A stretch of DNA of 64,000 nt, taken from an uncultured Erysipelotrichaceae bacterium (GTDB taxonomy: Bacteria > Bacillota_I > Bacilli_A > RFN20 > CAG-826). Both the position numbers and the translations under genes were made by a program. Location: assembly GCA_902800025.1 (NCBI GenBank), contig CADCDA010000005.1, positions 36,900 through 100,899 on the forward strand. Reading direction: 5' to 3'. The notes below the pieces were generated by a model that worked only from the letters and a program-made list of their open reading frames with translations, was not told where the DNA came from and made no database searches. This document shows positions 48,525 to 49,053 of this stretch, piece after piece (position 1 is the first letter of the stretch; every line of letters begins with the position of its first letter).

Positions 48525-48618
48525 TTAACCTATTTATTTGAATATTATATGTTGATTCCCTATTTGATTTACTAATATGGTTATTGACGTTTCCCTAGAT
48601 GTGACTTACTTTAAGAAT

Positions 48619-48745
48619 AGAGATTTGGGCCTACCTATTGGTATGGCCTTTTATTATGTACGCTAGCGAGGGAGTTCCCCTCTTTACTTTTGTCTACACT
48701 ATGTTAATATATAGTTGGTTGTTGGCTCCTCTAGGAGCTTTTTTC
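48619..48745 (+). ncRNA. Candidate antisense antitoxin RNA
   Basis: TTGACG-17-TACTTT (48584-48612) upstream; terminator GGCTCCT-CT-AGGAGCT-TTTTT (48724-48744); convergent with the peptide ORF. Ends are approximate. Confidence 0.45.
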
Positions 48746-48806
48746 ATCTCTTCAGGAGGAGACCTACAACAACTAAGAGAACAATTAATAGAACTATCAG
48801 TTCCAT
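48744..48806 (-). CDS. 20-aa hydrophobic peptide MELIVLLIVLLVVVGLLLKR (type I toxin candidate)
   Basis: SD AAAGGA 6 nt before the ATG; single TM with basic C-terminus; too short for the ORF track. Confidence 0.7.
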   Translation of the reverse strand: MELIVLLIVLLVVVGLLLKR

Positions 48807-49053
48807 AACTATTCCTTTCTTCGTTAACATAGAAAGAAAAAGTAATTCGGAGAACACCTCTTATAGACGTGTCCATAAAAAGGCCCCTCATTTATTAAAG
48901 AGGTAAAAAATTGAAAAAATTTAATAAAATAATTTCAAGAATTTTGGTTATAAACTAGTTAATAAAAAAATATCATCAAAACCAATTATATATTTACAAT
49001 AAAAATAAAGAGTGATAGAGTGATTACACTGAAAATTACATAGGGAGGTCAAG

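Follow-up and report, generated by a model that had tools for sequence, protein, structure and literature searches.

A family of small hydrophobic-peptide genes, probably type I toxin-antitoxin-like, sharing an upstream module with recA in an uncultured Erysipelotrichaceae bacterium

We analyzed a stretch of 64,000 nucleotides (nt) from the genome of an uncultured Erysipelotrichaceae bacterium (positions 36900-100899 of contig C5; this whole stretch is called the window, and plain coordinates refer to it), focusing on an element in the 530-nt intergenic gap between a gene for a 164-residue membrane protein (48030-48524, plus strand) and the rpmG-secE-nusG genes (from 49054, plus strand). The genome, G000, comprises 1.57 Mb in 26 contigs, and the DNA sequencing runs that contain the stretch are bovine and goat gut metagenomes. 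The element carries a 20-codon open reading frame (ORF) for a hydrophobic peptide on the minus strand, within an RNA predicted to fold back on itself, and a candidate promoter on the plus strand that points toward it. We think it probable, judging from comparison of sequences, that this locus belongs, with two further copies in the genome, to a new type I toxin-antitoxin-like family tied into a recombination/competence-type regulon. An initial annotation, made from the window's letters alone, had already read the locus as type I toxin-antitoxin-like, and the copies, the bias of substitutions toward one frame, the conserved fold and the recurring convergent promoter and terminator all agree with that reading, in which toxicity, translation and the antisense RNA are predictions. 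We infer the transcripts, their ends, the toxicity of the peptide and the action of the antisense RNA throughout. Strain variants were taken from four DNA runs as short unitigs broken at repeats, which served for a few variants and not for structure.

The candidate toxin is encoded at 48744-48806 on the minus strand, from an ATG at 48806 to a TGA at 48746-48744, where the initial annotation had placed an ORF with a Shine-Dalgarno (SD) sequence. The SD sequence, AAAGGAA (48812-48818, minus strand), lies 5 nt before the ATG and is invariant in the three copies of the element in this genome. The peptide begins with Met-Glu, continues with 16 aliphatic residues including one Gly and ends in Lys-Arg; its ORF forms the inner part of a 37-residue frame opened by GTG (48744-48857). 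Comparison of the three genome copies gave five substitution events within the ORF, four of them synonymous and one exchanging Ile for Leu (P 0.03), and a 228-nt contig of run X9 contributed two further events, both synonymous. Copies and run contig taken together, six of the seven events are synonymous against an expected share of 0.30 (binomial P 0.0037). Read in the other two frames of the same strand, none or one of the seven would be synonymous, and several would create or remove stop codons. Conservation of the ORF, which had been flagged as a point on which the earlier reading could fail, is therefore visible as synonymous-biased change in its own frame only. A 60-codon frame that opens at an ATG in the upstream module described below (48694-48876, minus strand) is probably not a gene, to judge by its stop codon in the copy on contig C4, its many non-synonymous differences, and the fact that none of the seven events inside the 20-codon ORF is synonymous in it.

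A genome-wide scan for small ORFs (intergenic, ATG start, 15-45 codons, preceded by an SD sequence, with a mean hydropathy of at least 2.9 in a 14-residue window) returned exactly six, namely three copies of the 20-residue peptide and three of a 28-residue peptide. Searches for relatives of the window peptide among described proteins were negative. No toxin family of Pfam or NCBIfam (Fst, Ldr, Ibs, Hok, TisB and others) matched it, the only hits being to unrelated membrane-segment models at chance level (E 0.058-0.63); phmmer with the 37-residue frame gave no match among 1.84 billion representative proteins, and the Atlas gave none usable. Plasmid and phage records held no match to the element.

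The messenger RNA of the peptide is predicted to fold back over 48645-48885 (minus strand), with its 5' end paired to its 3' untranslated region (UTR), in the single-sequence fold, in the three-copy consensus and in the pattern of inverted repeats alike. Four such repeats are nested here: 48645-48652/48878-48885 (8 nt, 100% identity), 48671-48691/48838-48858 (21 nt, 76%, containing the TTACTTTT/AAAAGTAA pair), 48699-48707/48824-48832 (9 nt, 100%) and 48715-48724/48767-48776 (10 nt, 90%). The minus strand of 48640-48890 folds at -86.9 kcal/mol, compared with -55.0 +/- 4.7 for 200 shuffled sequences, none of which did as well (z -6.75); the plus strand of the same region also folds well (z -5.95), as is bound to happen with a long inverted repeat. 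RNAalifold on the three copies found 78 consensus pairs, three of them with compensatory changes on both sides: one (66/191) in the 9-bp long-range stem, and two (155/170 and 160/165, from the C4 and C24 copies) in the plus-strand terminator beside the stop codon. The SD sequence and the AUG are predicted to pair with codons 3-9 in both the minimum-energy fold and the three-copy consensus, the SD sequence lying opposite codons 8-9 in the latter. The innermost pairing (48715-48724/48767-48776 with its extension) is only partly retained in the other copies. All four long-range pairings listed in the initial annotation were thus recovered, and its proposal that the SD sequence is sequestered is borne out at the level of predicted structure. 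It had also named 6S RNA as a reading that would undo its own; Rfam at gathering threshold gave no 6S RNA, tmRNA or other family at the locus (the sole hit in the window is a ribosomal protein leader elsewhere), Rfam in E-value mode gave seven hits, all with E of at least 1.7 and none relevant, and ARAGORN predicted no genes.

BLAST within the genome split the region into three modules, A, B and C. Module B (48667-48880) comprises the 5' UTR, ORF and 3' UTR of the peptide gene and is present in three full copies, the one in the window, C4:174672-174887 (93.5% identity) and C24:1623-1838 (89%), along with a remnant at C2:172950-173029 that retains only the 3'-UTR hairpins. Module A (48575-48666), which holds the convergent promoter-like motif and the first hairpin, was found in seven copies. 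Some of these flank a further module, D (C16:10898-11085, C3:79093-79281 and C24:1456-1591), whose opposite strand encodes the 28-residue hydrophobic peptide behind a strong SD sequence, with the 3' end of the ORF overlapping the module A hairpin. The 28-codon ORFs (C16:10867-10953 and C24:1425-1511, minus strand; C3:79226-79312, plus strand) lie between the same two modules as the window ORF, and on C24 the 28-codon gene and the local copy of the window element form a tandem. C2:42520-42600 holds what is left of a decayed 28-codon peptide locus.

The convergent arrangement also extends beyond this species. We scanned 23 genomes of the genus with a promoter pattern consisting of TTGAC-N18-TACTTT plus six degenerate bases, and found it in three: six sites in G000, four in G009 and one in G022, compared with a single hit across all 23 genomes for the reversed pattern as a control. 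A peptide ORF or a remnant of one lies opposite 10 of these 11 sites, and the eleventh is a tandem duplicate. Within G000, four of the six sites abut an intact peptide gene, one is the tandem duplicate, 133 nt upstream of another site, and one abuts a decayed remnant. At all five sites in the other two species the motif faces a hydrophobic ORF of 22-24 codons that is preceded by an SD sequence and runs into the hairpin at its 3' end. All three species have identical promoter hexamers (which the pattern required) at identical spacing, while the 17-nt spacer differs at about half of its positions. BLAST with the module D locus gave matches in two other species of the genus; one locus, on contig C9 of G009, was found independently by BLAST through its ORF and hairpin part, and the hexamers then proved to be at the expected place. 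A copy at G009:C5:8606 has decayed, losing both the ORF start and the -35 hexamer. In a comparison of the ten peptides by eye, one of the 22-24-residue peptides has the same first five residues as the window peptide, and the rest of them resemble the 28-residue type in their basic tail with Gly/Pro. The search for other copies that the initial annotation had suggested thus yields three full ones in this genome, counting the window's, and related peptide loci in two more species. The exact module A pattern had no match in the genome_contigs and metagenome_contigs collections. Short DNA matches to the element in 60 relatives were discarded as candidates, since the eight that were checked, among them those on the ORF part, lie within open frames of 148-1009 residues and were read as chance, and the rest match module C.

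Module A contains a candidate sigma-70-type promoter on the plus strand (48584-48612), composed of TTGACG (48584-48589), a 17-nt spacer and TACTTT (48607-48612), directed against the peptide gene. Position 48589 is A in most run contigs (runs X1, X5 and X6), which makes the first hexamer a perfect TTGACA. Downstream of the promoter are three hairpins followed by T-runs on the plus strand. The first, 48627-48649, would form most of a predicted short antisense RNA of about 35 nt (48619-48653, plus strand, its start placed by the position of the -10 hexamer), consisting of an 8-nt tail, the hairpin and a U-run; this RNA would be fully complementary to the 3' end of the peptide messenger RNA, including the arm 48645-48652 of the 5'-3' closure. 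The second is a hairpin with a T-rich tail (48668-48692, plus strand; called at 48668-48682) that is identical in the three copies. The third is a strong intrinsic terminator (48724-48745, plus strand; hairpin 48724-48739, then a T-run) that abuts the stop codon of the ORF and was called again in the C4 copy. The scan called three terminator-like sites in all, two on the plus strand and one on the minus strand (48903-48884), compared with 0.2 expected; the minus-strand call was rejected as a terminator, this hairpin being instead a leader hairpin common to about 20 ordinary promoter regions.

The predicted antisense unit has the same form throughout the family. Hairpins were folded singly at 10 of the 11 sites, leaving out the second tandem copy on C16, and all 10 homologous predicted RNAs have an 8-nt tail, a hairpin of 8-10 bp and a U-run, with differing stem sequences. 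The initial annotation had proposed that the convergent promoter and the terminator beside the ORF define an antisense RNA of about 125 nt. The motifs at both ends are present, and the promoter motif with a hairpin terminator recurs near related ORFs, but the scan tool made no promoter call and the unit conserved in the family is about 35 nt long and ends at the first terminator (48627-48653), the very hairpin that had been singled out as likely to stop the RNA early. A longer form of about 127 nt (48619-48745, plus strand) may arise by read-through, for which both the 48627-48653 and the 48668-48692 hairpins would have to be passed.

Upstream of the peptide gene lies module C (48871-48950, minus strand), a candidate promoter with a leader, in which we take TTGAAA (48938-48933), an 18-nt spacer and TCAATT (48914-48909) as candidate hexamers. 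Its bounds come from an nhmmer profile; the BLAST query had been 48874-48975. The profile found 20 sites in the genome (E <= 2e-8), of which five head peptide loci and 15 lie directly before the start codons of ordinary genes. The latter include recA, dprA and comEA as identified by NCBIfam (module C at C1:117173-117251, C15:12070-12146 and C2:66511-66590, respectively) and, by Pfam, the radC operon, a RelB and PIN pair, a membrane protein with a C39 peptidase domain and three RhuM-family genes, besides ABC transporters, a gene of the MG284/MPN403 family and several unknowns. Module C combines an A-rich/TCG box and a T-run with a hairpin in which the SD sequence forms the 3' arm. In the window this leader stem-loop, with an SD-like GAGG as its 3' arm, is at 48884-48903 (minus strand); the same hairpin occurs directly before recA, dprA, comEA and other start codons, and its stem covaries between copies (CCTC/GAGG in some, CTCT/AGAG in others).

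The peptide loci of G009 and G022 carry their own species' variant of the module found upstream of recA, a co-variation that holds in three of three species. Because each species' peptide loci bear its own recA-module variant, this argues that the peptide genes and recA share regulation in all three. G000 and G009 are about 9 nt apart in the spacing between the A-rich/TCG box and the hairpin, which makes the hexamers named above for module C tentative. Apart from the primary sigma factor, the genome has a single sigma-70-family gene (L038:1168-1818, contig C1, minus strand), which encodes a 216-residue protein weakly similar to SigH-type models and adjoins an rRNA-methyltransferase-like gene. 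This protein is a candidate reader of the module C regulon, and module C is probably read by it or by another common regulator. Some further genes near module C copies were recorded in passing. The first gene behind one copy, ahead of radC, is a 60-residue ORF (C2:142550-142730, minus strand) without a Pfam match, its product having a single membrane helix between an acidic N-terminus and a basic tail rich in Trp. Module C copies also precede or neighbor the genes for three paralogous, very basic proteins of 117-132 residues with a shared N-terminal motif (at C4:39699, at C4:117063 and, on C2, downstream of radC), the one compared with Pfam belonging to no family. Between module C and the neighboring divergent gene there is an AT-only palindrome, TTATTAAC-N3-GTTAATAA (48948-48965), which recurs near many module C copies, and at other copies a variant of it is made of TTAATTAA repeats.

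Several observations weigh against a type I reading of the locus or lessen the force of the evidence for it. A single contig, of depth 2.6, is the source of two of the seven substitution events, and variable columns are at least as frequent in the ORF as in the 5' UTR (5 of 63 as against 6 of 78 in the three-copy alignment). The copies are recent (89-93% alike), so that their conservation may in part reflect recency. The exact peptide type, searched as a degenerate pattern with up to two mismatches, occurs in none of 300 other genomes of the family, and the genome_contigs, metagenome_contigs and viral_contigs searches gave no match to it either. The -10 hexamer of the convergent promoter is weak, with TACTTT agreeing at three of six consensus positions, too few for the scan tool to call a promoter; 4 nt of the promoter spacer (48591-48594) are missing from one goat-gut contig (depth 2.3), the C4 copy has no convergent promoter, and in the C24 copy the 28-residue peptide gene lies between the ORF and the promoter. 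Of the 10 antisense hairpins, four are not individually better than shuffled sequences (8, 8, 13 and 47 of 200 shuffles as good), and RNAalifold on the alignment of 11 hairpins gave no consensus and no pairs, since the stems fall out of register in the MAFFT alignment. We also know of no antisense RNA of this kind as short as 35 nt.

An alternative is that the locus is a real small membrane-peptide gene of a recA/dprA/comEA-type regulon whose product is not a toxin and could instead help DNA uptake or act on sibling cells, with the convergent RNA tuning its level or ending its transcript. The C4 copy persists without the convergent promoter, the upstream module is common to recA, dprA, comEA and radC, and the gene with the C39 peptidase domain and the ABC-transporter genes carry it as well. 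The peptide has no leader or double-glycine motif, however, and with 20 residues, a single acidic and two basic ones, it is unlike the exported peptides known to us. Several copies, a sequestered SD sequence and a convergent antisense promoter together form the type I pattern (PMC8594479), and decayed copies exist, as expected of dispensable and costly genes. We regard a non-toxin role as unlikely, while giving it some weight.

Two other explanations dispense with the peptide altogether. The region could be a non-coding modular intergenic repeat, similar to BOX elements or miniature inverted-repeat transposable elements, that spreads or recombines as DNA and contains the ORF by accident. Its mosaic of three modules that are also found separately (seven copies of A, about 20 of C, and partial copies) resembles BOX elements, and it forms a long hairpin on both strands; one contig of run X5 joins 48622 to 48886, skipping the whole element, with a flank of only 26 nt. 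Fortuitous coding is hard to reconcile with substitutions that are synonymous in one frame only and with related peptides that occupy the same place in other species despite a different nucleotide sequence. As a repeat, the element would number just three copies and one remnant, with no terminal inverted repeats or target duplications seen at the copy ends, which adjoin other functional modules; module C is the working upstream region of ordinary genes, and the plasmid and phage records are without a match. We therefore consider a mobile or recombining repeat improbable. The least probable account in our judgment is that the plus strand is the functional one, its three T-run hairpins (48627-48745) serving as a stack of terminators or a small RNA for the membrane-protein gene at 48030-48524, and the minus-strand ORF being incidental. 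It has in its favor that three terminator-like hairpins stand in a row after a plus-strand gene with no other terminator, and that at C2:172950-173074 the remnant, which lacks the ORF, consists of precisely these hairpins immediately behind the stop codon of a gene. It would leave the conserved SD sequence and ORF, the synonymous bias and the minus-strand upstream module unexplained, and the C4 copy's neighboring gene on that side points in the opposite direction.

Under the type I toxin-antitoxin-like reading, the factor that controls the regulon would transcribe a minus-strand messenger RNA of about 280 nt from approximately 48905, out of module C. Its 5' end (48885-48873) would pair with 48645-48658 and the SD sequence and the AUG would be buried, leaving the full-length messenger inert in the manner of hok or aapA1. 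Meanwhile the promoter at 48584-48612 on the plus strand would make the hairpin RNA of about 35 nt (48619-48653), or a read-through form ending at 48745, and by analogy with Gram-positive type I systems the duplex of this RNA with the messenger may lead to cleavage or decay, keeping the peptide off until the regulon fires. A more speculative extension, which we hold only tentatively, is that these genus-restricted membrane peptides of 20-28 residues belong to a regulon for recombination and DNA uptake and that a constitutively made antisense hairpin, about 35 nt long, restrains each of them. Once the alternative sigma factor became active, the toxin messenger might outrun the antisense RNA and the membrane might be depolarized, so that the competent cell is arrested or its siblings are killed and DNA is released.

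Two features of the surrounding window are recorded here on their own account. Overlapping ORFs of 137 and 101 residues at 50076-50782 (minus strand) resemble, from their translations only, a PIN-type toxin with a Phd-like antitoxin, that is, a type II pair. The Rfam hit mentioned above is a ribosomal protein L10 leader (RF00557, 53.6 bits) at 54334-54425 (plus strand), downstream of nusG as expected.

Tiny, fast-diverging peptides make type I systems difficult to detect. The comparative evidence in the present case is unusually clear, involving two paralogous peptide types and three species, and the clean modular layout could be used as a template when other reduced genomes are searched. That the module is shared with recA, dprA, comEA and radC points to a link, open to experiment, between a membrane toxin and DNA uptake or recombination, and the roughly 20 promoters that carry the module make up a candidate regulon for the one additional sigma factor of this 1.6-Mb genome. 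A literature search found no type I system described in Mollicutes or in uncultured gut relatives, with the proviso that supplementary lists (e.g. Fozo et al., 2010, Table S8) might hold similar ORFs; the main text of the T1TAdb paper contains neither 'Mollicutes' nor 'Tenericutes', and the search brought up no type I toxin described as belonging to a competence regulon. Since membership in a named family failed every sequence test, we file the locus as what is likely a new family of a known kind, the type I toxin-antitoxin-like systems.

The closest layout is that of Fst/RNAII (par) and SprA1/SprA1as, in which the antisense gene lies 3' of the toxin messenger RNA, is convergent with it and overlaps its 3' UTR and not its ORF (PMC8594479). 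The window locus has the same 3'-convergent layout in its predicted transcripts, a small hydrophobic peptide and a structured messenger 5' region, but its peptide is shorter (20 residues) and matches no toxin family of Pfam or NCBIfam, and no antitoxin family of Rfam matches the locus. The Fst and SprA1 RNAs also interact outside the overlap (PMC8594479), whereas here only the overlap is evident. In TxpA/RatA, BsrG/SR4 and SprG/SprF the antisense RNA covers the 3' end of the ORF (PMC8594479), as it would in the sister loci with 28- and 22-24-residue peptides. The window ORF differs from these in lying about 90 nt from the conserved antisense hairpin and in a predicted RNA of about 35 nt, and it has no sequence similarity to them.

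In Hok/Sok and AapA1/IsoA1, pairing between the 5' and 3' ends of the messenger RNA and sequestration of the SD sequence make the full-length messenger inert. The window messenger is alike in its predicted long-range pairing and buried SD sequence. The abstract of PMC6733600 treats regulation through toxin messenger folding. Antisense RNAs of the Hok/Sok and AapA1/IsoA1 systems act on the 5' side or over the ORF (PMC8594479), and their hosts are Gram-negative. The overlapping upstream frame in the window is not conserved, unlike mok, and there is no family match to either system. Ibs peptides have about 19 residues. Ibs/Sib resembles the window locus in its very short, almost purely aliphatic peptide and in its several copies per genome. 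It is a system of Enterobacteria, and its Sib RNA spans the whole ORF (PMC8594479); the scan of the window found no promoter or terminator for an RNA opposite the ORF, and the Rfam model SIB_RNA, whose gathering score is 56, gave 16.2 bits on 48584-48658, a chance-level match (E 1.8).

With respect to the regulon, the nearest parallel is sigma-20 (MG428) of Mycoplasma genitalium, an additional sigma factor with a promoter of its own, TTGTCA-N18/19-ATTWAT, for recA and recombination genes (PMC4446450). Module C reads differently from the published motif, and the passages of PMC4446450 consulted make no mention of antisense-controlled small peptide genes. The likeness to the sigma-20 regulon and to the ComX/SigH competence regulons lies in a shared module before recA and recombination genes and in one extra sigma factor, here in a relative of the mycoplasmas. 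For the coupling of such a regulon to a toxin, TisB/IstR-1 offers the model, as its toxin stands behind a promoter of the stress/DNA-damage regulon while the antitoxin RNA is made from a housekeeping-type promoter. Here, likewise, the peptide loci share the upstream module of recA. IstR-1 differs in lying 5' of the toxin without overlap (PMC8594479). The present candidate regulon also includes the DNA-uptake genes dprA and comEA, and it is probably dependent on a sigma factor rather than on LexA. If this reading is true, the family would be a counterpart of TisB/IstR-1 coupled to competence instead of the SOS response, and it would give the mycoplasma lineage its first type I system.

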